This document shows, one piece after another, positions 12,187 to 31,952 of a stretch of DNA of 31,952 nt. The translations under genes and the position numbers were made by a program. Within the stretch, counting starts at the first letter, position 1. The number at the start of each line of letters is the position of its first letter. The notes under the pieces are model-generated. The model worked only from the letters and a program-made list of their open reading frames with translations, had not been told where the DNA came from and searched no databases. Origin of the DNA: a virus (Duplodnaviria; Caudoviricetes); IMG/VR virus record IMGVR_UViG_3300033182_000404, positions 1-31,952 of that record. One strand, given 5' to 3'.

Positions 12187-12611
12187 AAGAAAACATTGTT
12201 TGTTCAGGTGCATTATTTTATGCAAGTAATACCAAACGATTTTTGCTTCTTCAACGTTCAAGTAAAAAGACTGCTGGTCAATGGGGTCTTGTAGGCGGCA
12301 AAGCAGAAGGCAATGAAACGCCATGGGAAGGACTAATTCGAGAAATTGAAGAAGAAATTGGCAAGACGCCTTCAATCAAAAAAATTATACCGTTAGAAAT
12401 GTTTACATCAAACGACGCTAAGTTCTTTTTCCACACATACTTAGCAATAGTTGATTCAGAGTTTATTCCTACACTTAATCACGAACACTGCGGATATGCT
12501 TGGGTCGATTCAAATGCGTGGCCTAAGCCGTTACACGTAGGTTTACGTACTACATTACAAAGTAAAGCAATCAAAGACAAGTTACAAACAGTGCTTGATA
12601 TAATTGTATGA
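12168..12611 (+). CDS. NUDIX hydrolase
   Basis: Nudix box GGKAEGNETPWEGLIREIEEEIG; LLLQR..WG; LNHEH..YAW. Confidence 0.92.
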   Translation: MANSTIKENIVCSGALFYASNTKRFLLLQRSSKKTAGQWGLVGGKAEGNETPWEGLIREIEEEIGKTPSIKKIIPLEMFTSNDAKFFFHTYLAIVDSEFIPTLNHEHCGYAWVDSNAWPKPLHVGLRTTLQSKAIKDKLQTVLDIIV

Positions 12612-12829
12612 GTTGGGTCGGCGAAACATTTGGCCACTGGGCTGAAGTTAAAGTACAAAATCTAAAAGAAAAAATACTTGTTGACGACGATACACATAAA
12701 CAGCGTGTAAGTACTTGCTTATCATGCGACCGTTACGGTAAAGATATGATGGTTTGTAAAGAGTGTTGGTGTATTGTACCGTTAAAAACTAAAGTTAAAG
12801 ATTTTCACTGTCCACTTAACAAGTGGTAA
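12608..12829 (+). CDS. Small Cys-rich protein (CxxC..CxxCxC..CPxxKW; DUF6171-like), paralogue 1
   Basis: RVSTCLSC...CKECWC...K.K....CPLNKW; ATGA overlap with the NUDIX gene. Confidence 0.8.
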   Translation: MSWVGETFGHWAEVKVQNLKEKILVDDDTHKQRVSTCLSCDRYGKDMMVCKECWCIVPLKTKVKDFHCPLNKW

Positions 12830-13344
12830 TCTGCTTCTTGCACGTTTTCTTCAACATCAATAATAGAACTTATTAGTTTTTTATTTTCAAAGTCTACAGT
12901 AAGTGTTTCGTGTACACTTTCATATGTGCCATCACGGCCATAATCATTAAAACTAAAGAAAGTTTCATTACTTACATGTTTTTTACTAATTCTAAATCGT
13001 AAATCTTTTTTAGTTTCAATGATAAAGTCTGTAACCTCATCGTTAAAGTCAAACTTAGGTTCACTAGGGAAGTTTCTATGTATATTTCTACCTCTACCAT
13101 AGGCTGTTAAACACTCGTGTAGTGTAATTAAGCAAAAACTATCTGGAACTTTGTTCATTAGATCAGTAATTGTGTCGCCATGTAGCATATTTGCTGATTT
13201 ATAAACGTAAGGGTTGTCTTTATTAGGCCAAAGTATTAAAGAATGACTTTCGATCTTCCAATGTGAATGGTGTTTTGCTCGACTATACCATTCAAGCAAA
13301 TCTTCAACATCAAATGAACCTATTAAGTTATCAATCTTTAACAA
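12805..13344 (-). CDS. Hypothetical protein, last gene of the halogenase cassette
   Basis: 179-aa ORF overlapping the halogenase stop; no motif recognised; start uncertain. Confidence 0.65.
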   Translation of the reverse strand: MLKIDNLIGSFDVEDLLEWYSRAKHHSHWKIESHSLILWPNKDNPYVYKSANMLHGDTITDLMNKVPDSFCLITLHECLTAYGRGRNIHRNFPSEPKFDFNDEVTDFIIETKKDLRFRISKKHVSNETFFSFNDYGRDGTYESVHETLTVDFENKKLISSIIDVEENVQEADYHLLSGQ

Positions 13345-14860
13345 TGTTATCGTACCAATCTCTCAAAAACAGTGCATGATTAGGAAAAACTTCTAGTTGT
13401 GCTTCTGTTTTTTGCTTATACATATTCCAAACTAGTTCGCCGTATTGTTTTACTGACGTTTTTGCAGTAACTTCGCTGTCGTCATCATAAAACCCTAGCA
13501 AGAATAACAGTTCAAACCATTGCCCAACATGAAACATTGTATAAAGGCCTGGTTGATGCAAGGAATTAGGTGGCATAGGCTTAAACAGTTTCATTATTTT
13601 TTCAATTCTATGATTAACTGGAACATTTTTAACTGCTTGCCAAAATTCTGTGTCGTCTTTTTTACTTAGATAGTAGTGTAAGAAAATAAAATCATGAATT
13701 TCATCTATAACACTTTCAAATTCACGACTTAAAAACTCTCTACCTTGGTCATCATAGAAACCGCGGCTTTCAATTAACACTTTTGTGAGATTTTGTACGG
13801 CTTTTGTGGTAAATGTAATGCCAGTTGCCTCTAATGGTTCAACAAAACCAGCACTTAGGCCAACGGCTACTACATTTTTAACAGCAATGTTTTTGTGTTT
13901 GCCAATTTTCATTTGTAGGTGGTTGGCTTCGGCTTCATATTCGCCGATAGCATCGCGTAATTCTTGCTCTGCTTGTTCCGGAGTAATAAATTTGTCACAA
14001 TAAACGTAACCGTTGCCTATTCTACTCCAGGTAGGAATAGTCCAACGCCAACCTGCGGTCATTGCAGTGGCTTTTGTGTAAGGATGCATTGCTTCTTTGC
14101 GGTTGGCGTTGTATTCTTTGGGCATTGCTACTGCCCTATTACATAAAAGGGTATCACTAAAACTAATAAATGGTTCTTTTAGTGTTTGTTCTAATAACAA
14201 ACTCTTAAATCCAGTACAGTCTATAAACAAATCAGCAGTTATAGTATCGCCTGTGTCTAATTTTAGACTTTCAATACCATCATCGTTAACTGAAATGTCT
14301 TCTACCATAGCATCATAGTAGTTAATTTTATGTTTAAATTTAGTTTTTAACATTCCTACAATATCGTCGGCTCTAAAATGCACTGCGTCCCATGCGATTC
14401 CATTTAACCCGTATGTATAGTCTAATCTATGATCATCAAGTTTAGGTGATTTATTATTTTTTGCTAGTTGATAACTAGGAATCCAGTCTAAAAACTCTTG
14501 TTTTGTTTTTTTAGAGGCTAATACATACTCGTGCATCATTACACCGTTGCCTAATACTGCCATATCAGCAATATCGTTGTCAACAAACACAGGATTTTCT
14601 GCCCAGCCGTGTAATTCTACTCCTAACTTATATGTTGAGTCGCATAGTTTCATCCATTCGCTTGGTTCTAAACCGCACTCATACAAAAAGCCTGTTGTAA
14701 ATGGTTGCGTTCCTTCACCTACACCAATAGTACCAATTTTTGTTGATTCTATTAATGTGATGTTAACCATCTCAGGTAAATTGTGTCGAAGATGCGCTAC
14801 TGTTAACCAGCCGCTACTACCGCCGCCTACAATAACAATATTTTTTACTAGTTTATCCAT
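13331..14860 (-). CDS. Flavin-dependent tryptophan halogenase family protein (PrnA/RebH-like)
   Basis: GGGSSGW (FAD binding), IGVGEGT, YKLG (catalytic Lys position), ADLFIDCTGF, GWRWTIP (WxWxIP), GNGYVY, GLSAGFVEPLEATG. Confidence 0.93.
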   Translation of the reverse strand: MDKLVKNIVIVGGGSSGWLTVAHLRHNLPEMVNITLIESTKIGTIGVGEGTQPFTTGFLYECGLEPSEWMKLCDSTYKLGVELHGWAENPVFVDNDIADMAVLGNGVMMHEYVLASKKTKQEFLDWIPSYQLAKNNKSPKLDDHRLDYTYGLNGIAWDAVHFRADDIVGMLKTKFKHKINYYDAMVEDISVNDDGIESLKLDTGDTITADLFIDCTGFKSLLLEQTLKEPFISFSDTLLCNRAVAMPKEYNANRKEAMHPYTKATAMTAGWRWTIPTWSRIGNGYVYCDKFITPEQAEQELRDAIGEYEAEANHLQMKIGKHKNIAVKNVVAVGLSAGFVEPLEATGITFTTKAVQNLTKVLIESRGFYDDQGREFLSREFESVIDEIHDFIFLHYYLSKKDDTEFWQAVKNVPVNHRIEKIMKLFKPMPPNSLHQPGLYTMFHVGQWFELLFLLGFYDDDSEVTAKTSVKQYGELVWNMYKQKTEAQLEVFPNHALFLRDWYDNIVKD

Positions 14861-16553
14861 CTTGTTTCTCTAATACAAATATACCTAACCCGTTCCAATA
14901 ATCATTTGGATCTTCACCGTTAGTAGTTATTAAATGTTGGTGTCTAACTTTTAAGTTTAATTCGCTAATGCCTTGTAATGCGCCTTCTTGTACGTTACCC
15001 CAATTCCAGTCATCTACAACATATATAAAGATAGTATCGAGCATTTCATAATAATGCTTTAATGCCTTTACTTGTGATTCGTAAGCATGATCGCCATCAT
15101 AAAAGAATACATTACCTTTAAAGTTAATATCATCTGGTGTAACTTCAAACGCATCTTTATCAATCATAGTAGCATAAATGTTTCCTTGTGCATCTATGTT
15201 ACGTTTTAATATTTCTTTAGGATCGCCTTGTTCTGCTGACCATTCAGGCATGTCTTTCATCGGATTAATTTTAGGATTTGAAAAATTATCAATGGCAACA
15301 GCCGCAGTATTATAGTTTCCATCAATCGCACTAGCAAATATAGCGCCTTGATAACTGCCTACTTCAATATACCTTGCATCTTTAAAGTTTACAAGGTTGT
15401 TTACAAAGTGTTTTACTTTATGACTAGTTAATCCTGCAATATCTAGTGTTGATTTACTTACTTTAGATTTTCCTTCATCGGCATTTTTTAATGCTGTGTT
15501 TACTTGCTCAATAAATCTATGTCTAGATTTGCCTACAATTACACGTTCGCAGTAATTGCAATCCCAACAATCAAATTTACAAGTTTTAATTTTTTGACGC
15601 CATGCATTAATTGGAGATCCTTCAAGTTTCATATCGTCAATATAGTCGTCAAATGTATCCCATAGTAATTCTTTACCTTCTGCAAAGTTTTTAATCAGTT
15701 GCATGGTTTCAAACAGCCTTGGAATATGCTCACGTCCGTGCATTTTAAAGACGTCAATTCCTAGTTCATCAATAAATTCAACCCAATCTTCGCGCCACGG
15801 TGGCAAGTTTGCTGTTTTTAGTGCGTGTGCCGGATCTTCTTTATTCCATTTAGGACAAGTAAACTGACTTAATGGTGTCATAAAGTATGTAGGCGTAAAA
15901 GGATCTCGACGTGTATTATTAAATTGGAAGTGTTCGTCCATTACTGAACAATTACCCCAACACCCTTCGTTTGCTAATAAACTTACTTTAATATCTCTGC
16001 CATATTTTTCAATACAATATTCTTTTGCACGTTTAATTTCTAACAGTTGGTTTCTATCACGCATTAGATCTCTATCTAAATTGATATAAGAAAACCCTGC
16101 TTTAACTAGTTCTACTACTTCGTTAGCATTGCGTACATTTCTTAAAATTGTATTCTTAATGAATAACTCAGGATATTCTCGTTGTATTTTTCCGCTTAAT
16201 AGCCATATAGTATGTGGAAGTGTTACTGTTCTAATACCTGCGTCGTATAGTGGACGAAAATTTTTAATCCACATATCGAGCATGTCTTCTCTTGGAGGAC
16301 ATTCAATGTTATTAAACGTAGCACTAAGAGGAATACCTAAATCGTTTTGAAATATTTTAGCGTTATGGATTAAATCTTGTGCTTGATTAGCATCGAAAAC
16401 ATCACCCATTGCATCTTGTACAAAGGGAGGAATACGACTTGTAAAATAAATGTCGTAGATATAATCCTTGTGTTCTTTAACAAGGCTATAAAATTTACTA
16501 AATTGCTCTGTTGTAAGTTTAGGATTTAATGGAATACTAAAAACTTTCTTCAT
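14853..16553 (-). CDS. Peptidase-U32-like Fe-S protein fused to a class I SAM-dependent methyltransferase
   Basis: N-terminal barrel with INLDRDL, LLANEGCWGNC, a further Cys (FTCPKW), GIDVFKMHGRE and CKFDCWDCNYC; C-terminal YIEVGSYQG, IDNF, FFYDGDHAYE, VVDDWNW (Methyltransf_24-like). Confidence 0.75.
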   Translation of the reverse strand: MKKVFSIPLNPKLTTEQFSKFYSLVKEHKDYIYDIYFTSRIPPFVQDAMGDVFDANQAQDLIHNAKIFQNDLGIPLSATFNNIECPPREDMLDMWIKNFRPLYDAGIRTVTLPHTIWLLSGKIQREYPELFIKNTILRNVRNANEVVELVKAGFSYINLDRDLMRDRNQLLEIKRAKEYCIEKYGRDIKVSLLANEGCWGNCSVMDEHFQFNNTRRDPFTPTYFMTPLSQFTCPKWNKEDPAHALKTANLPPWREDWVEFIDELGIDVFKMHGREHIPRLFETMQLIKNFAEGKELLWDTFDDYIDDMKLEGSPINAWRQKIKTCKFDCWDCNYCERVIVGKSRHRFIEQVNTALKNADEGKSKVSKSTLDIAGLTSHKVKHFVNNLVNFKDARYIEVGSYQGAIFASAIDGNYNTAAVAIDNFSNPKINPMKDMPEWSAEQGDPKEILKRNIDAQGNIYATMIDKDAFEVTPDDINFKGNVFFYDGDHAYESQVKALKHYYEMLDTIFIYVVDDWNWGNVQEGALQGISELNLKVRHQHLITTNGEDPNDYWNGLGIFVLEKQDG

Positions 16554-16830
16554 TCATTCTACGCCATTTTGCATTTGATATCTCCCATTTATCTAATGGG
16601 CATGGTTTACTGTCGTTGTTTACACTAGTCATAGGCCATATAATACAACTACACAAATCACACATCATGCGTTCATAAATATATTCTTCACCTTTTTTAG
16701 TATCATGCTCAGCCAGAAGGTCCATGAACTCACAGCCGTAGCAAGTGTTCATACGGCCAACACGCAGTTCCCAATCGTTTAAGGTATACTCAGGTGGTTT
16801 GTTGATTTTCAATTGCTTTGATTCCACCAT
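16537..16830 (-). CDS. Small Cys-rich protein, paralogue 2 (about 97 aa; start moved to MVESKQ)
   Basis: RMNTCYGC...MCDLCSC...CPLDKW; GGAG just upstream of ATG 16830/GTG 16827. Confidence 0.75.
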   Translation of the reverse strand: MVESKQLKINKPPEYTLNDWELRVGRMNTCYGCEFMDLLAEHDTKKGEEYIYERMMCDLCSCIIWPMTSVNNDSKPCPLDKWEISNAKWRRMNEESF

Positions 16831-17662
16831 CACTCTCCACTTTAATCTTGATATTAGATTTAGTTTTTTCTCCGCCAAAGTCGCCTTCAACGCCTGTAAT
16901 ATTTGGTAAAGCAATCGCAGGTTCGTTTGTTTCGTGAGTAATAAGAAGATTACGTACTTTATCTTGTATTTGTAATATACCCTTTTCAACTTGTGCTACG
17001 TTAGCAATGGCTTGTCCGATAGTTTTTTGTTGCAATGCTAAAGGCATGCCCATGATAGATTCCATATTGCCGCTACTAATCTTGCCCATAGTTAGCATAT
17101 CCATCATTGCTTGTTTAGCCATACGTTGTGACCAATAGTCTTCTTCTTTTTCTTCCCAATTATCTTTATAATGCTCTAATGTTTTCATTGTATCATTAGG
17201 CGCAATTTTTTTGAGTACAGCAAGGAACTGTTTGATTTCAACTTCGTTTTGGAGTTCAACTTGTCTTGTGTACTCCATATCAAATCTAGTTTTATCAATT
17301 TCTTCTTGTAGAAGTTCTCTTTCTAGATCGTCTTCTTCTTTGTCTAAACGACGTTGTAATTTTCTAAGTTTAATGTCTGCTTTTTTTAATTGGTGTTTGC
17401 CTTCCGCTAGTGAAACCATGCGTTGACGAACTTCTAATCCAATTTGTCGAATCTTTCTTGGATCAGTAATTTCGCCGCTTACAACAAACGAATCAATTTG
17501 AAATTTACTGTATGCTGTTGTTTCGTTTGACAGGTATCTAATTAAGTCTGCATCTTCGTCAGATTCAACAGAAATATCTACGTACTCTGCCATATCAAAA
17601 CGCATATCTTTTGGTGTATCAAAGGTGCTTAGCCAACCTTCTTCAACTTTTTTATTTGCCAT
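16790..17662 (-). CDS. Coiled-coil hypothetical protein downstream of the fibre genes (possible assembly chaperone)
   Basis: AAAGGAG SD before ATG 17662; long charged heptad segment; SKFQIDSFV..T.PRKIRQIGLE and EEDYWSQRMAKQA blocks. Confidence 0.7.
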   Translation of the reverse strand: MANKKVEEGWLSTFDTPKDMRFDMAEYVDISVESDEDADLIRYLSNETTAYSKFQIDSFVVSGEITDPRKIRQIGLEVRQRMVSLAEGKHQLKKADIKLRKLQRRLDKEEDDLERELLQEEIDKTRFDMEYTRQVELQNEVEIKQFLAVLKKIAPNDTMKTLEHYKDNWEEKEEDYWSQRMAKQAMMDMLTMGKISSGNMESIMGMPLALQQKTIGQAIANVAQVEKGILQIQDKVRNLLITHETNEPAIALPNITGVEGDFGGEKTKSNIKIKVESDGGIKAIENQQTT

Positions 17663-17727
17663 CAATGACTCCTTTACACATATACAAGTATATATGCTAA
17701 TTTAGCGTTGTGATTTAAGGATGTGGC

Positions 17728-18417
17728 TTAGATATGAAGTTGGAAGTCACCATATCTGTAAGGATGAAAATCCGGATGTGGCATAATTCCAAAGAATTCA
17801 TCAGCAACGTGTGCGGCTTCTCTAATAGTAGTACATGCTTTTACACGATCAACACATCTTTGCTGTTGACCTAAAAGATTATTAACTTTTGCATCATATG
17901 CTTCAGTTTTTTGTAATACCTTTTGAACCATTTCTGCTTCAGTAATACTTCTAGCACTTGCTAACTGACGTAATAATGAACCACCACCTGCTTTTGCTTC
18001 TTTGCGTTGTTGTTCCCAAGTACCAGTTTCAAGTGTGTTACTAGTTAACTGTAGTTGTTCAAAACGCTCTTGGAAGATGTATTTGATACGTGCAGTCATG
18101 AAAATTTTCATATATTCTAAACTATCACGTGCTTCTTGTTCGGTATAAGGTCTTTTAACTTTTTCAAAATCTTCAGCATGACCTTGCTTGGTTGGAAACT
18201 CGTCGCCTGTATGGATATTACGATATGCTTTATACTCTGGGCGACCAAAGTCGTTGTATCTAGCCGCAACAGCATCTGAGACAACAATAGGATTGCCTTC
18301 GTTCCAATCAATCCATTCTGGATTAGAAACCTCAACAAGTGTTAATCCGTGCTGACTGTCTAAGAATTTAAATCTTGGGTCAATGTCATGTCTTTTTCTT
18401 GTATATAAAATGTACAT
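17728..18417 (-). CDS. Probable tail-fibre assembly/accessory protein
   Basis: TWEQQRKEA..LLRQLASARSITEAEMVQKVLQK..Y....LLGQQQ..D.V..C resembles small helical proteins encoded after fibre genes; directly follows adhesin A. Confidence 0.55.
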   Translation of the reverse strand: MYILYTRKRHDIDPRFKFLDSQHGLTLVEVSNPEWIDWNEGNPIVVSDAVAARYNDFGRPEYKAYRNIHTGDEFPTKQGHAEDFEKVKRPYTEQEARDSLEYMKIFMTARIKYIFQERFEQLQLTSNTLETGTWEQQRKEAKAGGGSLLRQLASARSITEAEMVQKVLQKTEAYDAKVNNLLGQQQRCVDRVKACTTIREAAHVADEFFGIMPHPDFHPYRYGDFQLHI

Positions 18418-18433: not shown

Positions 18434-20374
18434 TTATGCAATTTTTGATCCACCGTCTCCAGAACTCATGCCTCTATCAAAGTTACCAAGGAAGTTTCTT
18501 GAACCGTTTGAATAGTGTTGATACCAGAACCAACCGTTTTGACAACTTGATCCACAGCATCCTCCGCCGTAACCATAATCTTGACCTTCAATGAAGTTAG
18601 TTTCACCACAACTTTGTGGTTTACTTGTATAACCGCCTTGGTTACTGTTTGCAGAATGGTTGTATCTTGTAAAGTTACTTGACGAGTTACCAGCATCTTC
18701 TACAAGTGAATATCCGCTCTTTGTAGCAAGTGACTTAGAGTGTGCTTGGTTTGACCCGCCCGGTCTACTCATACCACCGGAGTATGTATCACTTGAGAAG
18801 TTAAAGAATTGAGCACCATAACACTCATAGCCTCTATTTTCATCTTCAAAAGCGTTACCGTAGTTATTACTTGCGTTATTGCCTTGCACCTGTGTATAAC
18901 TGTTATTTGAGAATGTATGTTTTGCTGTGTTGGTGTTGTTACCAGTAGTTGTATATCCTGCCGGAACACCTACATAGCCACCGTGATTACCCATAGATCC
19001 TGCATCGTCTTTTGATACACCCATGTTACCGTTTTGTGATTCACTTTCAGATGCCATACTAAAACCACAAACATATGAACTTGAGCCCATACCTTCCATA
19101 CCATAACCGTATAAATGTGTATCGCTTGATGTACCTGAGAAATAAGCGCCAGGTCTGTTACATCTGTCACCTAGTCCGGTATATGAGTTGTTTGAAATTT
19201 GAACTCTGTGCGATGCTCTCCACGGGTTACTGCTTTGATAACCACCAATGATATAACCCCATGCATATACTTGTCTATAGTAATAACTGTTAGCAGGGGT
19301 AAAGTTTAGTGTAATGTCTGTAAAGTCACCTAGTGTCGTGTCAGTTGCTCTAATAGTAGCCGCATAGTTTTGGCTCCATGCACCGTTTAGTGTATCCCAC
19401 TGTACAGTACCACTTACTACACCGTTTGATGCTAATGAAAGACCGCTTGGTAAACCGCCACTTGGCGCACTAATTGTAACTGAGTGGTTAGGGTCAGTAG
19501 CACTAATAGTTGTGCTATATGAACTCATTGTGTTAAAGTTAAATGTTTGGCCGTTAGTTACGTTTGTAAAACTCGGAGCCGCGTTGTTACGTGATGTAAA
19601 TGTAAAGTCTTTAGCGGCTTTACGACCGGTTGCATCAATAGCAACAACAGTAATATTTTCTACAGTATCACTTGCTACACTTGGAGCAGTACCACTAATA
19701 ACACCAGTGTTAGAGTCAATACTTGCACTTGCAATGTTGCCGCTACCATAGTTAGATCCTTCACCTGCTTGGTTTGAGAATCTATATGTAATTGCACCTG
19801 CACCGTCTGGGTCGGTTGCCGCAATAGTGTTAGTAACACTTAAACTGCTCATTGCTTGACCTTCAAACAATGTACCTAAGTCAGTAGCAGTTGAGAATGA
19901 CGGCGGAGCATCAACGTCAATGACATCGGAAAGCACAGCACTTAGGCCAGTACCGTTAAGTACTTGAACATCGTATGGTTCGTCTGTTTGTAATAGTCTA
20001 TTTGCACCAGTAAAAGTAATAGTAATTTGTGTTGAACTATCACGTGTTACAGTACTTGGAGGATATGTAGCACCACTGTTACCAATAATAGTAACAGTCA
20101 CACTTGATTCGAAGTTCTGACCACTAATAACAACAGTTTGTGTTGTATCATCTTCGTTAACTGTTCCAGGTGTAGTACCACCAATTTGTGGAGGTGCCGC
20201 AATCGCTGACCAACCAGTTTGTGTGTATTGTTCTAGGAAGCCTAAGTCAGTGTTAAATCTAATATAACCTTGTTGAGGACTAGCAGGTCTTTCAGCAGTA
20301 GAACCTGTAGGTACACCTAATAAGTCACCTGTGTATATTCTATTCTTACCAGTAAAGTCTCTAATATCTGCCAT
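18434..20374 (-). CDS. Fibre/adhesin A: conserved N-terminal segment, IPT/Ig/cadherin-like stalk, Gly/Ser/Asn/Tyr-rich propeller-like tip
   Basis: PTGSTAERP..GYIRFNTD..LEQY..GW; ISGQNF (IPT); ATDPDG and LPSGLSL...GVVSGT (He_PIG-like Ig); C-terminal GY..GG repeats. Confidence 0.8.
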   Translation of the reverse strand: MADIRDFTGKNRIYTGDLLGVPTGSTAERPASPQQGYIRFNTDLGFLEQYTQTGWSAIAAPPQIGGTTPGTVNEDDTTQTVVISGQNFESSVTVTIIGNSGATYPPSTVTRDSSTQITITFTGANRLLQTDEPYDVQVLNGTGLSAVLSDVIDVDAPPSFSTATDLGTLFEGQAMSSLSVTNTIAATDPDGAGAITYRFSNQAGEGSNYGSGNIASASIDSNTGVISGTAPSVASDTVENITVVAIDATGRKAAKDFTFTSRNNAAPSFTNVTNGQTFNFNTMSSYSTTISATDPNHSVTISAPSGGLPSGLSLASNGVVSGTVQWDTLNGAWSQNYAATIRATDTTLGDFTDITLNFTPANSYYYRQVYAWGYIIGGYQSSNPWRASHRVQISNNSYTGLGDRCNRPGAYFSGTSSDTHLYGYGMEGMGSSSYVCGFSMASESESQNGNMGVSKDDAGSMGNHGGYVGVPAGYTTTGNNTNTAKHTFSNNSYTQVQGNNASNNYGNAFEDENRGYECYGAQFFNFSSDTYSGGMSRPGGSNQAHSKSLATKSGYSLVEDAGNSSSNFTRYNHSANSNQGGYTSKPQSCGETNFIEGQDYGYGGGCCGSSCQNGWFWYQHYSNGSRNFLGNFDRGMSSGDGGSKIA

Positions 20375-23300: not shown

Positions 23301-26300
23301 TAGTAGCAACGTTTTGTTGCCATTCGACGTTACCTAAGATATCAATACGTGCGGCCCATGCGTTAGCGGCATTACTGTAACCTGAATTTCTCCAGTGTCC
23401 TACAGCCATAAAGTAGATACCGTCGCCGCTACCTGTGTCTAAACGTAGTTTGTTAATTCTTACATCTGGATACTGGTATGACTGAATGTATGCACCACTG
23501 TCATCAATTCGTGTAATAATTGATTGGTGCCCAATTGGATCATAAGATACAACATACAAATTTCTTTCAGCATTAGCATCGCCTTCTGCCGCATATGTGT
23601 CTACTGATGTAGTTGGGTTTTTAGTATACGCGGCCGCAGTTGCTACTAATTGGTTAGCCGCACTTGAGTCGTTGTAGTCTAATGTCTTACTCCAAAGTTC
23701 TGTACCTGCCGGGTTAAACTTAATAATGCCAATACCTGTAGTAGCGTGATCACCGATAAAGTAAACGTCATCGGCGTCAACAGCCATCGCAGTTACAGTG
23801 TTTAAATCGCCAATGTCTTTATCCCACTGGATTTCACCCGAGGTACTTAACTTCATACTAAAGCCGTTATTTGCACCGCCTTTGAATACTGTACCACCTA
23901 CGTATACTTCTTCGCCGTCGATAGTTTCAATTACTTCGGCTGTACCAAAGTATGTTTCGTAAGTATAGAACCATTCAACTGCGCCCGATGCGTTAAATCT
24001 AGCAATGAATGGATAACTTGCGGCATTATCCCAAGTACTTGCTACTGTTGTACCTGTTGGGTTAATATGGCCTGCATAGAAAATGTTACCATTCTCGTCT
24101 CTAGTTGATGCGTGTACGTGAACGTTTGATGCAATAGTGTTAACAGAGTTAAGTGTTTCGTCTGTTAATTGTAATTTACCTGTTAGTGGTGATTCGCTTT
24201 GTGAATAGCCACGTGCAACAGCACCGTACTCTCCGTATGAGTTGTTACCTACGATAGCACGAATCTTACCACCTGACTCAGCCAAGTAGCCAATGTCGCA
24301 GTAATATGTAAAGCAAGATACGATCTCAGTACGTCCATCGTTTAGTACGTGAACACCAATACCGTCTGAGTTGATCTGTGTAAAGTCGTTGTTAACGATA
24401 GATTTGTAACCACCATTGTGTAGTGCGCCATCTACCTTCATACCAGTACCACCCGGCGAGAAGTTAGTACAGTTTTGTACATATGGTGATTGTGATGTAA
24501 TCCACACACTTGTATCATCTGGCCCATAACCTGGGTCAAGTGATACTTGAACCGAACCAGTTGAGAAGTTGCGGAACACAAAGTTACGAATACGTGCGCC
24601 GTTGTTTACAAGGAACACATATGAGTTAGCATTCGGTGTTGATCCGTCGTCTGAAATACCAACACCAAATCCGTTATCGTTTGTGGTGTCAGGTGAAATG
24701 TCAACAGCACCAAGACCGTTACCTTCTAGTACAATACCTCTGCCAAGTCTAATTGGACATTGTTCTTCGTATGTACCTGAACTTACGTTAATACGTGCTT
24801 TACCTAAGTTAAATGTTTGATCAGCCGCATGTCTAATAGTACGCCATGAACTAGTAGGTGTGCGTCCATCGTTATTGTCATCGCCTTGTGGTGATACATA
24901 GTAATCGTTTTGTGGAGTTAAGTGACCCCAACTTGGAATGCCATTTTGTACGCTTAAGAATGCACCACTTGGTCCAATTGGTAAACGTTCAACACTGCCA
25001 CTAGCGTTGCGATAAATCATATCGCCGGTGTTAGTCATTGGTGAACTGATGTCACCTTGTGCAAACAATTCCCACTTAGTAGGATCTGTTCCAGGAGTAA
25101 CGCCAATGTTGCGTTCTGCTACTGAAATGTAAGCACTTTGTGAGTATTCAACAATGTCGTTCCACTTATATTCAGTAGCAACATTCCAAACACTCTTCCA
25201 TTCAAAACCGTCACTTAAAATTTCCCAGTTTGCATCTGGTGGTTCTCCAGCGCGAGTACTGTCTGAAGCGTATGTAATAACACAAATATAAGAACGGCCA
25301 CCATGTTTAACAATGTCGCCTTTCTTGTAGTTTTCAATAGGTGAACTTTCCCAGTCACCTCTCCAACGGATACCGTCTACAAATAATTCAAATGCTACTT
25401 CTGATTCTGGATCACGTAATGTTGAACCATCGTCAAAACTGTTAAATGTACAAATATAAACCTTACCACCATATTGTGCTAAGTCACCTGGAGCAAAGTT
25501 ATTTCTTGGATCGTACTCGCCTCTCCAGTTTAATCCTTTAGCATAGGTAGTCCAGTATTCGGTACCTGAACTGTTTGGAGCATCTCTGTCAGCAGTAATT
25601 TTAGTACATAGGTATAAGTAACCACCGTAACTTACAACATCACCTGGATAGTAAGTTGTATTGTCTGCCCATGCTCCTTGCCAACTAACACCATCTGAAA
25701 TTAAATCCCAGTCGTCGTTTGGTGGAGTTTGTGTAGTAATCTTGTTAGCAACGTAAGACTTGCCGCCTAGTAGTGTAACATCGCCTGGCTTGTATTCAAA
25801 ACCAATAACTGGATTGTGTTCGCCAATAAAGTTGTAACCTTGTACTAATAGATCCCAATGTAGTTCTGAGTATGGAGTGTTCCAGCCTGCAGACTCGTAC
25901 ATGCTACTGTGGTTACCACAAACTGGATACAGTTTAGGTGAACCAACTGGTACTGTGAATACAATCTTTCTTTCGTTGGCTAAGTTAAAGCCTGCTGAAT
26001 ACTCAGCAAAGTTTACTTGTCTTACACCATCTAAGTACCAAGTAACACCGTCTAACCAATAGTTATAATTACCACCAGTCGCAAAGTGTCCGTTTTCTAC
26101 TGTACTGATATAAATTGGATGACCTGCGTTTGTTGCATCGCTTTGATCGAATACATAAGTGTTACCTTCGTAAAGATCAAGTACAGGTGTTCTTACACCG
26201 TCAATGTAATAACGGTTTGTGTAAGGACCTTCGTTTACAACAGTTACAATTTTAGTGTATGTTGAAAGTAAAGCACCTGGCTTTACATTTAATGAATCTT

Positions 26301-26907
26301 GTTTAGCGTAGTATGTATTACCGCCGAAGCGAACAACATCACCACGTTGGTATTCTGTAGTGCTGTCCCATGCACCATCAAACTGCATACCGTCTGCAAG
26401 TTTTTGCCAGTAAGTAGCATTACTTGGTCTTACATCACTTGATTCGTCGTATGCGTGATCTTCAATACAGATATAAATTCCTGAACCATATGTAACAATA
26501 TCGTTAAGGGCATAACGACCTGCGTTAACCCACGCACCTTTGTTAGCAATACCTGTACTTAAAATTTCCCATCTACTAGCATTTAAATCATCTTCGAAGA
26601 TAGAACCGGCAGTATGTCCTACCAAGCAGATGTAAAGGTTTGACCCATAACGTACAACATCATTTACTTTATAAGTTGCATAGCCAACGCCTAGTGTCCA
26701 GTCGCCTCTCCATGCAAAACCTGAGTTCATTAAGTTCCATTTATTTGCTACTAAGTCAGCATAAAAATCCGAACCTGATGTATGATTTTCTGTTGCTACA
26801 TATGTGTTTGCACCGTGTCGTACGATATCATCTTTGATGTACGCTGTGCTGGCAGTCCAATCGCCCTGCCATTTAAATTTGAGTCTACCAAGAATTATCT
26901 CTGCCAT
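20374..26907 (-). CDS. Giant multidomain virion fibre/structural protein (2177 aa)
   Basis: About nine WxGxW..Y..GD.V.YGG..Y.C repeats, a cupredoxin-like insert, a YYVSPQGDD beta-helix-type start, propeller-like repeats, helical CxRDxG repeats, and a C-terminal GTTAQRP segment plus VDTSGGAVTVTLP..GD domain (T4 gp9/gp10/gp34-like). Confidence 0.85.
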   Translation of the reverse strand: MAEIILGRLKFKWQGDWTASTAYIKDDIVRHGANTYVATENHTSGSDFYADLVANKWNLMNSGFAWRGDWTLGVGYATYKVNDVVRYGSNLYICLVGHTAGSIFEDDLNASRWEILSTGIANKGAWVNAGRYALNDIVTYGSGIYICIEDHAYDESSDVRPSNATYWQKLADGMQFDGAWDSTTEYQRGDVVRFGGNTYYAKQDSLNVKPGALLSTYTKIVTVVNEGPYTNRYYIDGVRTPVLDLYEGNTYVFDQSDATNAGHPIYISTVENGHFATGGNYNYWLDGVTWYLDGVRQVNFAEYSAGFNLANERKIVFTVPVGSPKLYPVCGNHSSMYESAGWNTPYSELHWDLLVQGYNFIGEHNPVIGFEYKPGDVTLLGGKSYVANKITTQTPPNDDWDLISDGVSWQGAWADNTTYYPGDVVSYGGYLYLCTKITADRDAPNSSGTEYWTTYAKGLNWRGEYDPRNNFAPGDLAQYGGKVYICTFNSFDDGSTLRDPESEVAFELFVDGIRWRGDWESSPIENYKKGDIVKHGGRSYICVITYASDSTRAGEPPDANWEILSDGFEWKSVWNVATEYKWNDIVEYSQSAYISVAERNIGVTPGTDPTKWELFAQGDISSPMTNTGDMIYRNASGSVERLPIGPSGAFLSVQNGIPSWGHLTPQNDYYVSPQGDDNNDGRTPTSSWRTIRHAADQTFNLGKARINVSSGTYEEQCPIRLGRGIVLEGNGLGAVDISPDTTNDNGFGVGISDDGSTPNANSYVFLVNNGARIRNFVFRNFSTGSVQVSLDPGYGPDDTSVWITSQSPYVQNCTNFSPGGTGMKVDGALHNGGYKSIVNNDFTQINSDGIGVHVLNDGRTEIVSCFTYYCDIGYLAESGGKIRAIVGNNSYGEYGAVARGYSQSESPLTGKLQLTDETLNSVNTIASNVHVHASTRDENGNIFYAGHINPTGTTVASTWDNAASYPFIARFNASGAVEWFYTYETYFGTAEVIETIDGEEVYVGGTVFKGGANNGFSMKLSTSGEIQWDKDIGDLNTVTAMAVDADDVYFIGDHATTGIGIIKFNPAGTELWSKTLDYNDSSAANQLVATAAAYTKNPTTSVDTYAAEGDANAERNLYVVSYDPIGHQSIITRIDDSGAYIQSYQYPDVRINKLRLDTGSGDGIYFMAVGHWRNSGYSNAANAWAARIDILGNVEWQQNVATNAEVSEWMDVVPLGEDVYFAGYTFYSNNTAHKGLVARYTSAGTVDWIREFTNSTNNIAFYGVELDGVNLVATGIEQANTVRINVQKDVAGGLGTVTTGSYAINSGSLTVNNATSTDNQINDIDSATLTLGTTTVGFTLNQAPGITRTVNATRDGFAGIGRGITFTIDSLNRAPKAGSVFQILGDDETYFIIGTANYTGPTLVGGNYPNAQNTLVQNRTWIQKEVIGYVNETFNVGFTYDVAACERDYGYILDGAGYDICFGTNYWAVTNGLAYTRANALNVTTAQSAITNSSFTNLKSLVAGLTNVGDDATALSRSNANFDEILDIFNNGTGSANALSFPIPTGASANITNARDQLQNNRSFLQAEVIAWINSTYPALVYDTVKCNRDVGYIIDSLTHDIVYGGNLATKVSARSYFVGATSQLGAGEATATAAAYNFLASHVSDVVQGNVISSPEQAGVSQDTSAGAASATEASTLDGLLQVIEDVITAGTLSGLPADSAPSVTWATGALQDARQDIITNKASLITQSTAHVNSIIFNYDQLTCERDVGLIVDALVTDLDHNSNGESIDAAFEYYTNGSALTAITTQKTETLAAINYMQTLVGHAMNQTAPAQTYSLETQVTGLAGAEAAGITLANTNVQIVYDVINQGRNVAPTKTGYGQVQISIEPPIPSNKTPDDGTHVIFREAFSQVRMSGHDFLDIGTGGFADTNYPVIIAEDYTQAPNQERETKSENGGRVFYVTTDQDGNFRVGDYFKVEQSTGRATLSSEEFDLTGLNELQLGSITAGKQGATINEFSTDGTMADNSDTAVPTERAVVTYIEAQIDARFESFGGTSHIAIPVGTTAQRPNPASTGFFRYNSDNASLEVYGSSGSWEPAGSIRWQISSANFQANKGEGWFVDTSGGAVTVTLPASAQIGDSVRIIDLVGTFDTNNCTINRNGHNIMGLAQDLTLSVEHQGIGLVYANATYGWKLIEVL
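25060..26880 (-). repeat. About nine tandem ~50-aa Trp-rich repeats (CBM5/12-like) in the giant protein
   Basis: Repeat starts KWQGDW, AWRGDW, ANKGAW, QFDGAW, NFIGEH, SWQGAW, NWRGEY, RWRGDW, EWKSVW; boundaries approximate. Confidence 0.8.
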
Positions 26908-26954: not shown

Positions 26955-27698
26955 TTACGCCGGATCACCATACTCATGGTTTTCGTTGTAAACAGCACGT
27001 AAAAAGCCGTTATCATCTAAGTAATACAGTATACTTTCTTGAACAATTTGCCATTGCTCGTAGGTCATACCATCTTGCTGATCTCGTAAGTTTCTGTACG
27101 GATACGCATTTCTAGGATCGCCGCGATCGTCTGTGTTTGGTGGATCATCAAGCACGTTTCCGTTAGTAAGAATTACAGGATCTAATCCTTTATCTTCTAA
27201 ATTAACAGTTGTGTATGCTAATAGATCACTGTCGCTGATTTGCATAACAATGTATGATTCACCTGCCATACCCATATGGTTCCAACAGTAATAGTACAAT
27301 GCACCTGGAGTATTTTCATCAATCCCAATGTGTACTTTTCTTGTAGTAGCAGAATTAAAACTACTAACGTATGTTGGTTGATCTACTAGCACACTGTCTA
27401 GTTCATAGGTAACATTTGTAGGATAAATGCTACCACCAAGAGTATGCGTTCCATCTTTAGTTTCGCTGAATAGCAAAGGGTGGCCGTCGTTTGAATTATC
27501 GCTCAAATCTAATGTGTATGTATATCCTGAGAAAAAGTATGGCATGAGCGCAACTTTGTCGTTGATCTGATAGCGATTTCCGCCAGGGGTTGCTACTACT
27601 TTAACTGTGTAGTTTACTGTACCAGATTTAGTATCTTGGATTTTTCTAAAACCGTGAAAGCCAGCGAACGATTTGCCTAAGCGTCTAATCTCAGCCAT
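26955..27698 (-). CDS. Virion-associated protein with a cupredoxin-like domain
   Basis: YTVKV..RYQIN..G.TYT.D.SD.SN.GHP...LYYYCWNHMGM; AGGAG SD and TAAATA upstream. Confidence 0.75.
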   Translation of the reverse strand: MAEIRRLGKSFAGFHGFRKIQDTKSGTVNYTVKVVATPGGNRYQINDKVALMPYFFSGYTYTLDLSDNSNDGHPLLFSETKDGTHTLGGSIYPTNVTYELDSVLVDQPTYVSSFNSATTRKVHIGIDENTPGALYYYCWNHMGMAGESYIVMQISDSDLLAYTTVNLEDKGLDPVILTNGNVLDDPPNTDDRGDPRNAYPYRNLRDQQDGMTYEQWQIVQESILYYLDDNGFLRAVYNENHEYGDPA

Positions 27699-27717: not shown

Positions 27718-27768
27718 TATTTAGCAATTATCATTCTTTAGTCAAATCTTAAAATATAAGCATAATTA
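27718..27768. promoter_or_regulatory. Divergent late promoters (TAAATA on -, TAATTA on +)
   Basis: CTAAATA on - (core 27723-27718) before AGGAG; TAATTA at 27763-27768 then 5 nt to ATG 27774. Confidence 0.55.
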
Positions 27769-27773
27769 TGTTT

Positions 27774-28409
27774 ATGAGTGATACTAAAATATTTTCGCTG
27801 TTTAGCCATGGTATTTTTGAAGGTACATTAAACATTCCTGAAGAAGATAAAATAAAAATGCTCGACCATATCGATTGGGATATTATAAAAAGAAATAGAG
27901 ACCGAGATCCTGATTGGTTTACACAATCTAAAGATAGGTTTTTACATGAAAAAGAAGCCTATTCTATGTTTACAAAAACTATTGAAGAAACAGCATCTTT
28001 ATACTGGAATAAACTTGGATACGGACGCACTGAGTTTTTTGTTACACAAATGTGGGGAAATTCAATGAAAGGCCGTGGAGAAATTGGAACACATTACCAC
28101 AGTAACAGCATTATAAGTGGTGTATTTTATTTTGATGTAAACGAAGAAGATAGCGGAGGGACTACATTTATGAATCCAATGTTTGGATTAAATCAACAAA
28201 TTAGTGTTCCGATTGAAGATTACAACGAATATACTCGAATGCATTACACTGTTCCGCCAAAACAAAATAGATTGATTTTATTTCCTAGTTATATACAACA
28301 TAAAAGCGAAAGATGTTGGAACAATAATATAAGAACAACACTAAGTTTTAATTTATTGCCTAAAGTTTTAGGAAATGACGCTGACTTAAATTATTATAAA
28401 TTAATTTAA
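27774..28409 (+). CDS. 2OG-Fe(II) oxygenase superfamily protein (TIGR02466-like)
   Basis: MWGN..G....HYHSNSIISGVFY, LILFPSYIQH, RTTLSFN. ATG 27774 preferred because it lies 5 nt after TAATTA. Confidence 0.88.
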   Translation: MSDTKIFSLFSHGIFEGTLNIPEEDKIKMLDHIDWDIIKRNRDRDPDWFTQSKDRFLHEKEAYSMFTKTIEETASLYWNKLGYGRTEFFVTQMWGNSMKGRGEIGTHYHSNSIISGVFYFDVNEEDSGGTTFMNPMFGLNQQISVPIEDYNEYTRMHYTVPPKQNRLILFPSYIQHKSERCWNNNIRTTLSFNLLPKVLGNDADLNYYKLI

Positions 28410-29107
28410 CGTTTTCTATATTCTTGTTCTTTATTATTGACACTATTCCAAGTATCTAAAAACTCCTGATCAACATTAGAAAGCAATCCCACACTCGACT
28501 CAATTTCAATAATTGGAATAAAGTGTGCAACTGGTGTTCCTTTTTCAATAGTTATATTTTTAGAAAATAGCATTGGCAAATGTAAGTATGGGTAAAAACT
28601 TGTATCAATAATTCCAGGCATTATTTGAAAATCTGTATGTTCTAGCAACAAAGGTAATACTAATAGTTTTGTTCCTTTTGATGACCGTGCTTTAATAGGA
28701 TTAATTAATTTTATCGCATGGTTATACTCATGTCGTATTGGTAAGTCTAAGAATTGGCTCACATGATGGATATCCCAAGATATATGCGGATTTTCACTTT
28801 CTAATAACGGCCATCCGGTGTTTCCTTTAAAGTTTTTTATAGGACACATATTATCTCTATTTGTGTCTTGTGTTATACTTACATTTACAGTTTCCCACAT
28901 ATGTAAAATATAACCTGTAGATAAAAAATCTATAATTCCGGGACATTTTTTAATAGTAGAAAAATTATAATTTCCTTGAGGTAAATTTGACGTATCAACA
29001 GGGCAAGTATCTAGTTGATTTTTAAACCATTGTGGTATACATTTTTTTGCAGGTTTGATTATTTCTAATAAATCTTCGTATTCTGTAAAAAATTTCATAG
29101 TTACCAT
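28406..29107 (-). CDS. Conserved phage protein (DUF6065-like; possibly dUTPase-like beta fold)
   Basis: KPAKK.IPQWFK, TIKKCPGIIDFL..GY, PGIIDT, I.KGTPVAHFIP. Confidence 0.6.
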   Translation of the reverse strand: MVTMKFFTEYEDLLEIIKPAKKCIPQWFKNQLDTCPVDTSNLPQGNYNFSTIKKCPGIIDFLSTGYILHMWETVNVSITQDTNRDNMCPIKNFKGNTGWPLLESENPHISWDIHHVSQFLDLPIRHEYNHAIKLINPIKARSSKGTKLLVLPLLLEHTDFQIMPGIIDTSFYPYLHLPMLFSKNITIEKGTPVAHFIPIIEIESSVGLLSNVDQEFLDTWNSVNNKEQEYRKR

Positions 29108-29271: not shown

Positions 29272-29518
29272 TTTTCCAACACGCCTTATATCTTAGGTTA
29301 CATCCGCAAAGTTGACAATTTGTAAAACTACTAAATCTTGGGGGAACTTCGCCACCTATCCAATGACGATATTTGTATTCGCAGTTTTGGCATTCACGTC
29401 TACGTTTACGAAAGGTATCAGTATCAACTAACACATCATCATCGTGGGCATTGGGAATATAATCTTGATATCTAGGATCATCCAATAGAGGATATGTATG
29501 CTTAATCTCTTCTGACAT
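29243..29518 (-). CDS. Small Cys-rich protein, paralogue 4
   Basis: RRRECQNC...CQLCGC...K.....CPDGRW; TAAATA 5 nt upstream of the ATG. Confidence 0.82.
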   Translation of the reverse strand: MSEEIKHTYPLLDDPRYQDYIPNAHDDDVLVDTDTFRKRRRECQNCEYKYRHWIGGEVPPRFSSFTNCQLCGCNLRYKACWKNERCPDGRW

Positions 29519-29551: not shown

Positions 29552-31018
29552 TTAGTTTCGAGCGTAAACTCTAACGTAACCGCCGTTAGCCATCCATGAA
29601 CCACGTGCAAATCCGCCTGGGCTACCGCCACAATAGTTAGGATGAGTTCCTAGTCCACTGTTAACGTCGTTACCATTATCATGTGCATTAAAACCAAACA
29701 TCAAAGGCTGTCCACAACCTACGTTACCTCTACTTGTGTTACCGTAAGCATTGTTTGAGTTTGATCCATATCTATCAAATCTAGGCTGACCTGTTCTGTC
29801 ATGCCCAAATACGCCACGCCATGTTCCGTAACTAGTATCAGCGTTCATGTATTGACTTGTGCTAAACATTAAACTGCTAGGTGTGCTAGAACTGTTAAAT
29901 GAGAATGGCATATATGAACTACTACCTGCACCAGGGCCACTAAATCCTGTACCATAAATCATAATGCCGTTACAGTTGTTAAATGTATAGAAACCTCTGT
30001 GTTTAGCAAAGTTTCCGTTTGCTGGTGATGTTTGTAAATTACTTTCACTATACGATGTGCTGTTTGTCCATTCTCCCGAACCGTACTGTTGTCCATCATA
30101 ACTGTAACCACGCATTAACCACATCCAGCCTCCACCTTGATTGCTCATATCAATGTAAACTTGAACAGCACCACTTCCATTAATGTTCATCCAATATAAT
30201 CCACTTGGTGAACCTAAATCTCTAATTGCTGTACTGCTAGTTGCCGCTCTACCTGAACTTGTACCGTCTGGATAAGGATTAACAATAATGTTAAAACTTC
30301 TAGCAACACTTTGTGAATTAGATGTTGCTGTAATACCAAAACTATAAGTTGTCTGACTTCCTACATCTGTTACATCAGCACTTGTAATTGCACCGTTGGC
30401 AGTATTTAAACTAGTGTTTCCTGGTAAACTACCCGAAGTCAACGAATATGTAACTCCGGTGCCATCGGGATCCGTTGCAGTTACACTAGTTGATTGCGAT
30501 CCACGATCTGACCACGTAGCAATATTTCCTGCGCCAGTACTCCAAGTAGGATCTCTATCAATATTACCTGCAGGTTCAAGCACTGCACTTAACCCCGACG
30601 GATTAACTACTTTAATATTATAACTTACACCACCTACAAAATTTACACTACTTGCATTAGTATTTGCTGTTAATTCGCTCGAGTTTACATAAGTTGTAGA
30701 TAGCGCACGTGAACTGCCGCCTGCACCTGCACCTTCAACATATACAATTGATCCACTTTTAAAGTTTGATCCTGTAATTGTAATAGTACTATCGGTGTTT
30801 TCATTAATAGTGCCAGTTTGATTTGTAACAGTTGGAGGTGCATCAATGCCTGCCCATCCTGTGTTATTATATTGTTCTAAAAATCCAAGATCGGTGTTAT
30901 ATCTTAATTTACCAGTAGTAGTTCCTGTACGTTCAGCCGTTGTGCCGTTTGGTAATGTAATGCCATCAGTACCTGAAAAAATTGTATTTTTATTTCTAAA
31001 ATCTTTACTATCGCTCAT
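29552..31018 (-). CDS. Fibre/adhesin B: conserved N-terminal segment, IPT/Ig stalk, fibrinogen-C-like tip
   Basis: LPNGTTAER..LRYNTDLGFLEQY..GW; ITGSNF; ATDPDG; SGLYWMNINGSGAVQVYIDMSNQGGGW resembles the fibrinogen-like G.Y......VYCDM...GGGW. Confidence 0.8.
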   Translation of the reverse strand: MSDSKDFRNKNTIFSGTDGITLPNGTTAERTGTTTGKLRYNTDLGFLEQYNNTGWAGIDAPPTVTNQTGTINENTDSTITITGSNFKSGSIVYVEGAGAGGSSRALSTTYVNSSELTANTNASSVNFVGGVSYNIKVVNPSGLSAVLEPAGNIDRDPTWSTGAGNIATWSDRGSQSTSVTATDPDGTGVTYSLTSGSLPGNTSLNTANGAITSADVTDVGSQTTYSFGITATSNSQSVARSFNIIVNPYPDGTSSGRAATSSTAIRDLGSPSGLYWMNINGSGAVQVYIDMSNQGGGWMWLMRGYSYDGQQYGSGEWTNSTSYSESNLQTSPANGNFAKHRGFYTFNNCNGIMIYGTGFSGPGAGSSSYMPFSFNSSSTPSSLMFSTSQYMNADTSYGTWRGVFGHDRTGQPRFDRYGSNSNNAYGNTSRGNVGCGQPLMFGFNAHDNGNDVNSGLGTHPNYCGGSPGGFARGSWMANGGYVRVYARN

Positions 31019-31019
31019 A

Positions 31020-31952
31020 TTATAACTCCTGGAAGATCCATCCTCTTACTGCTCCGCTATACACTAGCGAAAATCCTTCGTATTGGGTTGATGCTGTTAA
31101 ATCTTGTGTTAATGCCATAATTAATGATCCATTTCTTCCTACAATTAAGTTATTTGTTTGGAAAGTACCATTTACGTCAACAAATCGCACACTATCGCCT
31201 GTATTTGGGCTTGCAGGTAAATTAATCGTAACTGCGCCACTACTAGTATCAACAAAAATTCTATCATTGTTTACTGATGTATAGCCAGTATCTGCTGACG
31301 TTTTAGTAACCCACGGATTGCCGCCACCAATACCGCTCCATGCACCGTTTACATAACCTTCAAAAATATTAAGATCTGTATTATATCGGAAGTACCCATT
31401 TGCAGGACTGTTTGGACGTTGGGCAGTTGATCCTTTTGGTACTAGTTGGTATTGTGCCGCAATTTGTGCAACGGTTGTTCCTGCAATATCAAAATCAATA
31501 GTATCTGTAGATGCTCCGGTGCCTGTAACTGTTACTTTAGACTGTGTTGGACTTGCACCCGCAATAATAGCACTAGCACCTGCAACTTTGCCATCTACAT
31601 AAGTTTTAACTGCTTTTTCGGTAGGCACCGCTTCATCTGAATTATCAGCAAATGTACCATCTGTTGAAAACTCATTAATAGTAGCACCTTGTTTACCTGC
31701 TGTAATACTACCAAGTTGTAATTCATTTAGACCTGCTAAGTCAAACTCTTCAGAACTCAATGTAGCACGACCAGTTGCTTGTTCTACCTTAAAGTAATCA
31801 CCTACTCGGAAGTTACCATCTTGGTCAGTGGTTACGTAGAATACTCGTCCGCCATTCTCTGAAAGTGTTTCTCTTTCTTGGCTTGGTGCTTGTGTATAAT
31901 CACTAGCAATAATAACTGGGTAGTTAGTATCTGCAAAGCCACCTGAACCAAC
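31020..31952 (-). CDS. C-terminal part of a second giant fibre protein (start lies outside the window)
   Basis: Frame is open to the window end: VGSGGFADTNYPVIIASDYTQAPSQERETLSENGGRVFYVTTDQDGNFRVGDYFKVEQATGRATLSSEEFDL, almost identical to the 2177-aa protein. The track's start at 31760 is an internal TTG. Confidence 0.9.
   Translation of the reverse strand, partial: VGSGGFADTNYPVIIASDYTQAPSQERETLSENGGRVFYVTTDQDGNFRVGDYFKVEQATGRATLSSEEFDLAGLNELQLGSITAGKQGATINEFSTDGTFADNSDEAVPTEKAVKTYVDGKVAGASAIIAGASPTQSKVTVTGTGASTDTIDFDIAGTTVAQIAAQYQLVPKGSTAQRPNSPANGYFRYNTDLNIFEGYVNGAWSGIGGGNPWVTKTSADTGYTSVNNDRIFVDTSSGAVTINLPASPNTGDSVRFVDVNGTFQTNNLIVGRNGSLIMALTQDLTASTQYEGFSLVYSGAVRGWIFQEL

Follow-up and report, generated by a model that had tools for sequence, protein, structure and literature searches.

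The IMG/VR record IMGVR_UViG_3300033182_000404 is a contig of 31,952 nt that belongs to the tail region of a large, uncultured myovirus; all of it was analysed and is termed here the window. Its tail sheath protein is 40% identical to that of PA5oct-type phages and 47% identical, over 72% of the length, to that of Atu_ph07. Two modules, A and B, each consist of a gene for a giant fibre-like protein, a gene for an adhesin and a group of following genes (Table 1). In module A, four genes constitute what is termed here the core: the adhesin with a predicted beta-propeller tip, the two helper proteins phrog_1604 and phrog_1409, and a fusion of a U32-like TIM barrel with an O-methyltransferase (U32-MT). 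An earlier sequence-only reading of the window had proposed that each adhesin carries its own late-expressed kit of tailoring enzymes. The core cassette is a real and undescribed system, and it is narrower than that proposal.

Organization of the locus

The open reading frames (ORFs) named in the earlier reading are present at the sizes it gave (2177, 646, 488, 566, 509 and 213 amino acids). Its claim that one layout occurs twice holds for the pair of giant and adhesin genes, as the C-termini of giants A and B are 56% identical and the N-terminal stalks of the two adhesins 38% identical. It does not hold further downstream: the tips are unrelated, and the two sets of following genes share only a Cys-rich family. 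The layout had also passed over the 247-amino acid gene situated between the modules.

From phrog_1409 to the 179-amino acid ORF, consecutive genes overlap by 8–41 nt, as expected from the earlier description of enzyme genes that overlap or abut. The sequence TAAATA is a late-type motif that behaves as the core of a late promoter, and 10 of its 17 sites in the window are found 6–65 nt 5′ of a start codon on the same strand (binomial p = 4e-12). No TAAATA is present immediately 5′ of any enzyme gene in the window. At phrog_1409 the window has the variant TAAATT; of 13 sister loci, out of 14 chosen, 11 have TAAATA within −130/+60 nt at this gene. Scans of the window for sigma-70 promoters (68 vs 63 ± 9) and for terminators (14 vs 11 ± 4) gave numbers at chance level.

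Table 1. Genes and motifs of modules A and B, with positions in the window
Feature	Position	Strand	Remarks
Convergent DUF6171 Cys-rich protein	12608..12829	+	End of opposite operon, after NUDIX gene
179-aa hypothetical protein, without family match	12805..13344	-	Lineage add-on
Flavin-dependent Trp-halogenase family protein, 509 aa	13331..14860	-	Lineage add-on
U32-like TIM barrel/O-methyltransferase fusion, 566 aa, phrog_1458, T4-GC354	14853..16553	-	Core
Cys-rich DUF6171-like protein, 97 aa from ATG 16830	16537..16830	-	Lineage add-on
phrog_1409, 290 aa, coiled-coil/helical	16790..17662	-	Core
TAAATT variant of late motif (approximate place)	17690..17705	-	In 65-nt gap before phrog_1409
phrog_1604, 229 aa, likely assembly chaperone	17728..18417	-	Core
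Adhesin A, 646 aa, phrog_1417, cyanophage T4-GC351	18434..20374	-	Core; Ig-like stalk and C-terminal predicted Kelch propeller
Giant fibre-like protein A, 2177 aa, phrog_9851 tail fibre, CBM_5_12 repeats	20374..26907	-	TAAATA 41 nt upstream
247-aa structural-type late gene	26955..27698	-	Between modules; own TAAATA
2-oxoglutarate (2OG)-Fe(II) oxygenase, 213 aa	27768..28409	+	Outside core
phrog_7084 protein, 233 aa, possible dUTPase-like fold	28406..29107	-	Module B
Two Cys-rich DUF6171-like proteins, 91 and 56 aa	29101..29518	-	Own TAAATA
Adhesin B, 488 aa	29552..31018	-	Adhesin A-type stalk, fibrinogen-like (GGGWT_bact) tip
Giant paralogue B, C-terminal 310 aa	31020..31952	-	Runs off contig; ~1500 aa in sister contig

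Linkage of the four core genes

Linkage was followed in 80 viral U32-MT loci, 80 distant-propeller loci, 32 giant-fibre loci and 80 metagenome loci. ORFs were labelled with profiles built on the window proteins, and loci that were too short were dropped. Each 80-locus scan represents the best 80 matches, and loci within a sequence cluster are not independent. The propeller and phrog_1409 are present in all 61 U32-anchored viral loci that have at least 3.2 kb upstream (23 sequence clusters). phrog_1604 is found in 55 of the 61; the remaining six have an ORF in the same position, and the three that were checked are short homologues. When the propeller is the anchor, both helpers and U32 are found in 48/48 loci that extend 3.2 kb or more downstream (11 clusters), and the methyltransferase in 47/48. 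The metagenome loci, which overlap the viral set, are concordant (52/52).

Within the window lineage, the core is present in 16/16 propeller modules and in 0/8 modules with other adhesins on an immunoglobulin-like (Ig) stalk (at least 4.4 kb downstream; window counted). Covariation of tip type with enzyme set, as had been proposed, is thus seen for the propeller with U32-MT and the two helpers, but it is not a general rule. A divergent propeller query added four contigs, three with the full core and one that ends after the helpers.

The four-family block is also found in the cyanophages S-CAM4 and Syn33, where in Syn33 it corresponds to T4-GC351–354. The block in the phiKZ-like phage RP31 comprises the propeller-like ORF139 (profile E = 2e-5), phrog_1409, U32 and a permease, and a 292-amino acid protein of RP12 is a fold match to the propeller. 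T4-like cyanophages, the jumbo-like window lineage and a phiKZ-like phage all have the core intact, with an internal gene order that differs between lineages. Homologues of U32-MT are found in 126 isolate records and in at least 1985 database proteins. With U32-MT as the query, GTDB yielded one phage-like contig of 10 kb, in a metagenome-assembled genome, and plasmids yielded none; with a stand-alone U32 as the query, no viral locus was found.

Tree distances over 16 dereplicated loci are correlated between propeller and phrog_1409 (rho 0.64), U32 and phrog_1409 (0.46) and U32 and propeller (0.42), compared with 0.11–0.20 between cassette genes and the backbone gene gp15. The higher correlation within the cassette shows transfer as a block and not biochemical co-evolution. 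The window U32 clusters in the tree with U32 of T4-like backbones. Of the cassette members, the barrel is the best conserved: its median tree distance is 1.2, and the propeller and phrog_1409 have values of 2.1 and 2.8, respectively.

Two variants of the cassette were observed. Loci of one type (L112–L162 and L110, positions 10236–11237) have a gene for a 333-amino acid radical S-adenosylmethionine protein between phrog_1604 and a split U32/methyltransferase, in a lineage with three propellers. In locus L053, genes for heme oxygenase and a ferredoxin-dependent bilin reductase are situated right after the cassette (14021–15321).

Fibre tips

The tip of adhesin A is a predicted six-bladed Kelch beta-propeller with GG/Y/W repeats (mean predicted local distance difference test score, pLDDT, 81). 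The model matches Keap1 (TM 0.78) and KLHL17 (Z 30.3, root-mean-square deviation (rmsd) 2.3, 268 aligned residues); there is no Pfam Kelch match for this propeller. Of 118 family representatives, 116 have the propeller at the C-terminus, and in 8 of the 16 propeller modules of the lineage it is fused to the giant fibre itself. Polar residues K547, K552, E591, N593, Q598 and Q612 are near-invariant, at 96–100% of 67 dereplicated sequences. The earlier description of a Trp/Tyr/Asn-rich fibre is appropriate for Tyr (8.7%) and Asn (10.8%) in the tip but not for Trp, at 1.4% compared with 1.8% in the sheath. In a sub-lineage that includes the window (18434–18700), L001, L007 and L167, a Cys-containing motif replaces the usual last-blade motif of the family, and these propellers do not have the C-terminal Cys common to most others.

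The adhesin B tip is fibrinogen-like (GGGWT_bact), and the adhesin slot in the window lineage accepts many tips, glycine-rich ones included. A closely related contig (L185/L187) with three giant-fibre paralogues keeps module B at 82–95% identity, but its next giant fibre has a glycine-rich tip, and the contig ends 545 nt further on. This indicates that the fibre-tip slot is swapped between strains.

The U32-like barrel/O-methyltransferase

The model of U32-MT (pLDDT 88) shows a triosephosphate isomerase (TIM) barrel at residues 1–342 and a Rossmann methyltransferase at about 356–566. The barrel matches the U32 member Mk0906 (PDB 5d88; Z 14.8, rmsd 3.4, 223 aligned residues), the sole protein other than methyltransferases among 50 rows. 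The C-terminal domain matches O-methyltransferases with Z 16–17, TrmR among them (Z 16.3), and the closest are catechol and sugar O-methyltransferases. A PDB sequence search with U32-MT gave no match. PRMT5, the top Foldseek match to the whole model, was rejected as a coincidence of domain order (TM 0.23, rmsd 20).

Seven Cys residues are invariant in the barrel, as are other barrel residues. The motif NExCxxxC is found in 134/134 barrel sequences and CxxxCxxCxxC in 133/134. In the Atlas, the feature neighbours of the barrel are clusters with 20% PF01136 members. Judged from the model, the barrel resembles a U32 protein by fold but is not filed as a member of the family. PF13578 (Methyltransf_24) is matched by 38/38 members at E up to 0.05 (window score 25.1 vs a cut-off of 26.3), and the methyltransferase motif DDx[NDS] is present in 85/85 sequences. 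By its Rossmann fold, SAM motif and DD-N motif, the domain belongs with the class I O-methyltransferases (TrmR/COMT-like). Both enzyme domains are acidic (median isoelectric points 5.5 and 4.8, net charges −8 and −11), and no RNA-binding domain was detected by profile in members of the enzyme family.

Helper proteins

phrog_1604 has a helical domain in common, at profile E = 1e-19 to 1e-23, with three unrelated proteins of phages or prophages. The genes for two of these come immediately after tail-fibre genes, one in an Endozoicomonas plasmid and the other in Pasteurella phage Pmp6, and the third is a Helicobacter prophage protein. The presence of this domain in post-fibre genes is in favour of a chaperone role but does not prove it; phrog_1604 is likely an assembly chaperone for the fibre. 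One relative matches a PHROG family of tail fiber assembly proteins, but over a part different from the shared helical domain. No tail-fibre-assembly Pfam family was found among 34 members of phrog_1604, and a PDB sequence search gave no match. In loci L011–L016, short variants of phrog_1604 (179–194 amino acids) without the chaperone-like helical segment are still in the cassette. phrog_1409 has no credible relative in the Atlas and is likely a propeller-specific partner.

Proposed function

The linkage, the predicted folds, the propeller–fibre fusions in relatives and the late timing of homologous genes are direct observations, and from them a function for module A can be proposed. The four-gene unit, inherited as a block, may build and chemically mature one fibre tip, by hydroxylation and then O-methylation of the tip or of its ligand; this is given a probability of about 0.45. 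Late in infection, phrog_1604 as chaperone and phrog_1409 would fold or present the propeller, the U32-like barrel would hydroxylate the propeller or a bound ligand, the methyltransferase would cap the new hydroxyl, and the matured tip would join the giant fibre. We infer Fe-S binding by the barrel, the order of the chemistry, which follows by analogy from TrhP/TrmR and UbiUV, and the target. Known U32 proteins use prephenate as oxygen donor, as described in the available parts of two papers (PMC10990095, PMC11574389). A more far-reaching version, which is rather doubtful, is that at least three unrelated phage lineages place an oxygen-independent, Fe-S-driven methoxy group on a virion propeller by means of a dedicated enzyme and adaptor, and that the window lineage adds a halogen.

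Data from cultured phages bear on timing and location. In cyanophage P-HM2, the homologues of the four core genes (PHM2_098–101, assigned via T4-GC number) are all classed as ‘Late’ and the listed auxiliary metabolic genes (AMGs) as middle, in the available portion of the report (PMC5082946); the late expression foreseen for the enzyme is borne out to that extent. In RP31, the collagen-like product of ORF140, a gene situated just 5′ of the propeller-like ORF139, was detected in the virion (PMC5468394 Table S3). T4-GC351–354 are not listed in PMC3037559 Table S8, carriage of these genes by its three phages being unconfirmed. The five Syn19 mutation positions at the start of PMC6224464 Table S5, the section available, fall outside the cassette, which is weak evidence.

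Several observations weigh against maturation of the tip. The RP31 proteins ORF135–139 are absent among 32 virion proteins from excised bands (PMC5468394 Table S3). The motif CX6CX15CX3C, described as the Fe-S motif of U32 proteins in the accessible part of PMC11574389, is found in 0/134 barrel sequences, and none of 38 members matches PF01136 at E up to 0.05. In many loci the methyltransferase has a gene of its own, and at the RP31 locus it was not detected. Characterized U32 proteins act on RNA bases or on ubiquinone precursors and none on protein, so far as the parts of PMC10990095 and PMC11574389 consulted extend. Over 35 loci the propeller is tracked less closely by U32 (rho 0.26) than by phrog_1409 (rho 0.70). 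Finally, a gene for a DUF401/CitMHS-like permease is situated 3′ of the enzyme in 35/60 and 23/24 loci (e.g. L035, 8079–9119, and L083, 10016–11056) and in RP31.

The frequent permease suits a small-molecule product. The main competing explanation, unlikely but to be taken seriously, is that the core enzyme produces or changes a small molecule or a host-surface component moved by the permease, and that the propeller binds this compound and is not itself the substrate. The kinship of the methyltransferase with catechol and sugar O-methyltransferases is in accord with this, and the near-invariant polar residues of the propeller are as expected for a fixed ligand site. Iyer et al. proposed small-molecule or capsule products for other cyanophage clusters of halogenase, 2OG and methylase genes, as reported in the part of PMC7824862 at hand. 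However, the permease is absent from the window and from 25/60 loci, and late expression and the packing of the genes with a fibre chaperone also speak for tip maturation rather than for such a product.

Perhaps the barrel does not hydroxylate but serves tip assembly as a scaffold for metal or Fe-S, or as a folding factor. The non-canonical Cys pattern and the RP31 locus, where no methyltransferase was detected, would be consistent with this, but the barrel is the most conserved member of the cassette and has invariant residues, and the methyltransferase is usually linked (47/48); a scaffold is accordingly considered improbable.

Halogenase, oxygenase and other accessory genes

The earlier proposal of a kit for each adhesin, with halogenase and 2OG oxygenase decorating the fibres, is quite improbable. 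The halogenase provides support for it. This protein matches Trp_halogenase PF04820 (E = 1e-102, 344 bits vs a cut-off of 21) and has intact GxGxxG, catalytic-Lys, WxWxIP and FxEPLE motifs. It follows the core in 16/16 propeller modules of the window lineage, where the halogenases form one group at 46–87% identity; two halogenases beside other tips differ (20–31%). A scan with the halogenase gave only three close loci. The halogenase, one Cys-rich protein and the 179-amino acid ORF, for which no family match was found, are a stable add-on in the window lineage and may act on the target of the core. Outside this lineage the halogenase is found in 0/48 propeller-anchored loci, and near U32 it occurs in 10/60 loci (2/22 clusters). 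Its tie to the core is confined to the window lineage.

Module B has no core and no equivalent kit. Only one sister contig has this tip, and the genes that follow adhesin B are retained there (83–95% identity), a conservation that reflects shared descent. 2OG genes are found near U32 in 36/60 loci and phrog_7084 in 33/60; as these two families, in module B in the window, follow U32-MT at so many other loci, they shuffle. No co-oriented enzyme set is shared by the eight other-tip modules, among which a same-strand 2OG gene is found in 1/8 and a halogenase in 1/8. The 2OG oxygenase assigned to module B is present, but it is on the opposite strand and without TAAATA, and thus cannot share the transcript of adhesin B. 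Module B is an ordinary swapped adhesin with common accessory genes.

The 233-amino acid ORF had been labelled DUF6065-like. This label was rejected, as no match was found up to E = 5; the protein belongs to phrog_7084, one homologue of which has a weak dUTPase match (E = 0.0012). Four DUF6171-like Cys-rich paralogues flank both modules (12608–29518) and have six invariant Cys residues and a terminal Trp; they are possibly metal carriers. Cys-rich ORFs were also considered as precursors of peptides that are made on the ribosome and modified after translation (RiPPs), in keeping with the co-encoded peptide substrate suggested earlier. This was rejected, since they are the sole short ORFs and are near U32 in just 10/60 loci (ORFs of at least 40 amino acids were covered in relatives).

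Relation to known systems

The fold pair of U32-MT has a parallel in the Bacillus subtilis yrrMNO operon, whose products convert tRNA U34 to 5-hydroxyuridine (ho5U) and then to 5-methoxyuridine (mo5U), that is, hydroxylation followed by O-methylation, according to the available sections of PMC6599085. TrhP1/TrhP2 and TrmR likewise pair a U32-type barrel with a catechol-type O-methyltransferase. This raises the question of whether the phage enzyme modifies tRNA or rRNA in the same way and has come to be among fibre genes by accident. The phage pair differs in that it is mostly fused, has a non-canonical Cys motif and is tied to a tip and a chaperone. The acidity of both domains argues against an RNA substrate, as does the lack of a detected RNA-binding domain, and an RNA target would leave unexplained why the enzyme is so strictly inherited together with a fibre tip; it is very improbable. 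Chance linkage in a hypervariable island, which fits module B, the 2OG, phrog_7084 and Cys-rich genes, stands for the add-ons but is refuted for the core, hardly credible for genes that stay together in T4-like, jumbo-like and phiKZ-like phages despite swapped gene order.

Compared with UbiU/UbiV, RlhA and Mk0906, the phage barrel has in common the predicted TIM fold and a conserved Glu-Cys cluster, but it lacks CX6CX15CX3C, has an extra CxxxCxxCxxC motif and has no Pfam match. Phage flavin-dependent halogenases (PrnA-like, phrog_2928) similarly show the Trp_halogenase match and intact motifs; that of the window is at most 37% identical to those among the matches listed (40 of 77 isolate records) and is situated directly behind U32-MT.

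T4 gp37–gp38 and Tfa represent modules of fibre, adhesin and chaperone genes. The window resembles these in having a fibre gene, a swappable tip gene and a chaperone-like gene in one late operon. To our knowledge, no enzyme is an obligate partner of tips of the gp37–gp38/Tfa type.

The cyanophage block T4-GC351–354 has the identical four families. It was listed as ‘sericin-like’ and three hypotheticals, i.e. as hypothetical clusters only (Sullivan 2010, PMC3037559). The window block differs in being on a jumbo-like fibre and in the added halogenase. The terms ‘U32’ and ‘propeller’ do not appear in the available part of a jumbo-phage review (PMC7824862), and a literature search, with subscription papers and bioRxiv supplements outside its reach, found no description of the cassette.

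The window adds a contrast of tip types within one lineage, the propeller–fibre fusions and a lineage-stable halogenase. The core is thereby set apart from the genes for halogenase and oxygenase, which are commonly grouped as AMGs, and a strict genetic partner together with late timing narrows the target of a phage enzyme that is widespread but unannotated. Should the tip prove to be the substrate, a U32-type enzyme would for the first time have a protein as its target, which would point to a chemical layer on receptor-binding fibres and a chemical tier of host recognition.

Elsewhere in the window there are two tail-tube paralogues, at 2451–3716 and 3785–4411, one of which has a 190-amino acid extension rich in Thr, Gly and Gln.

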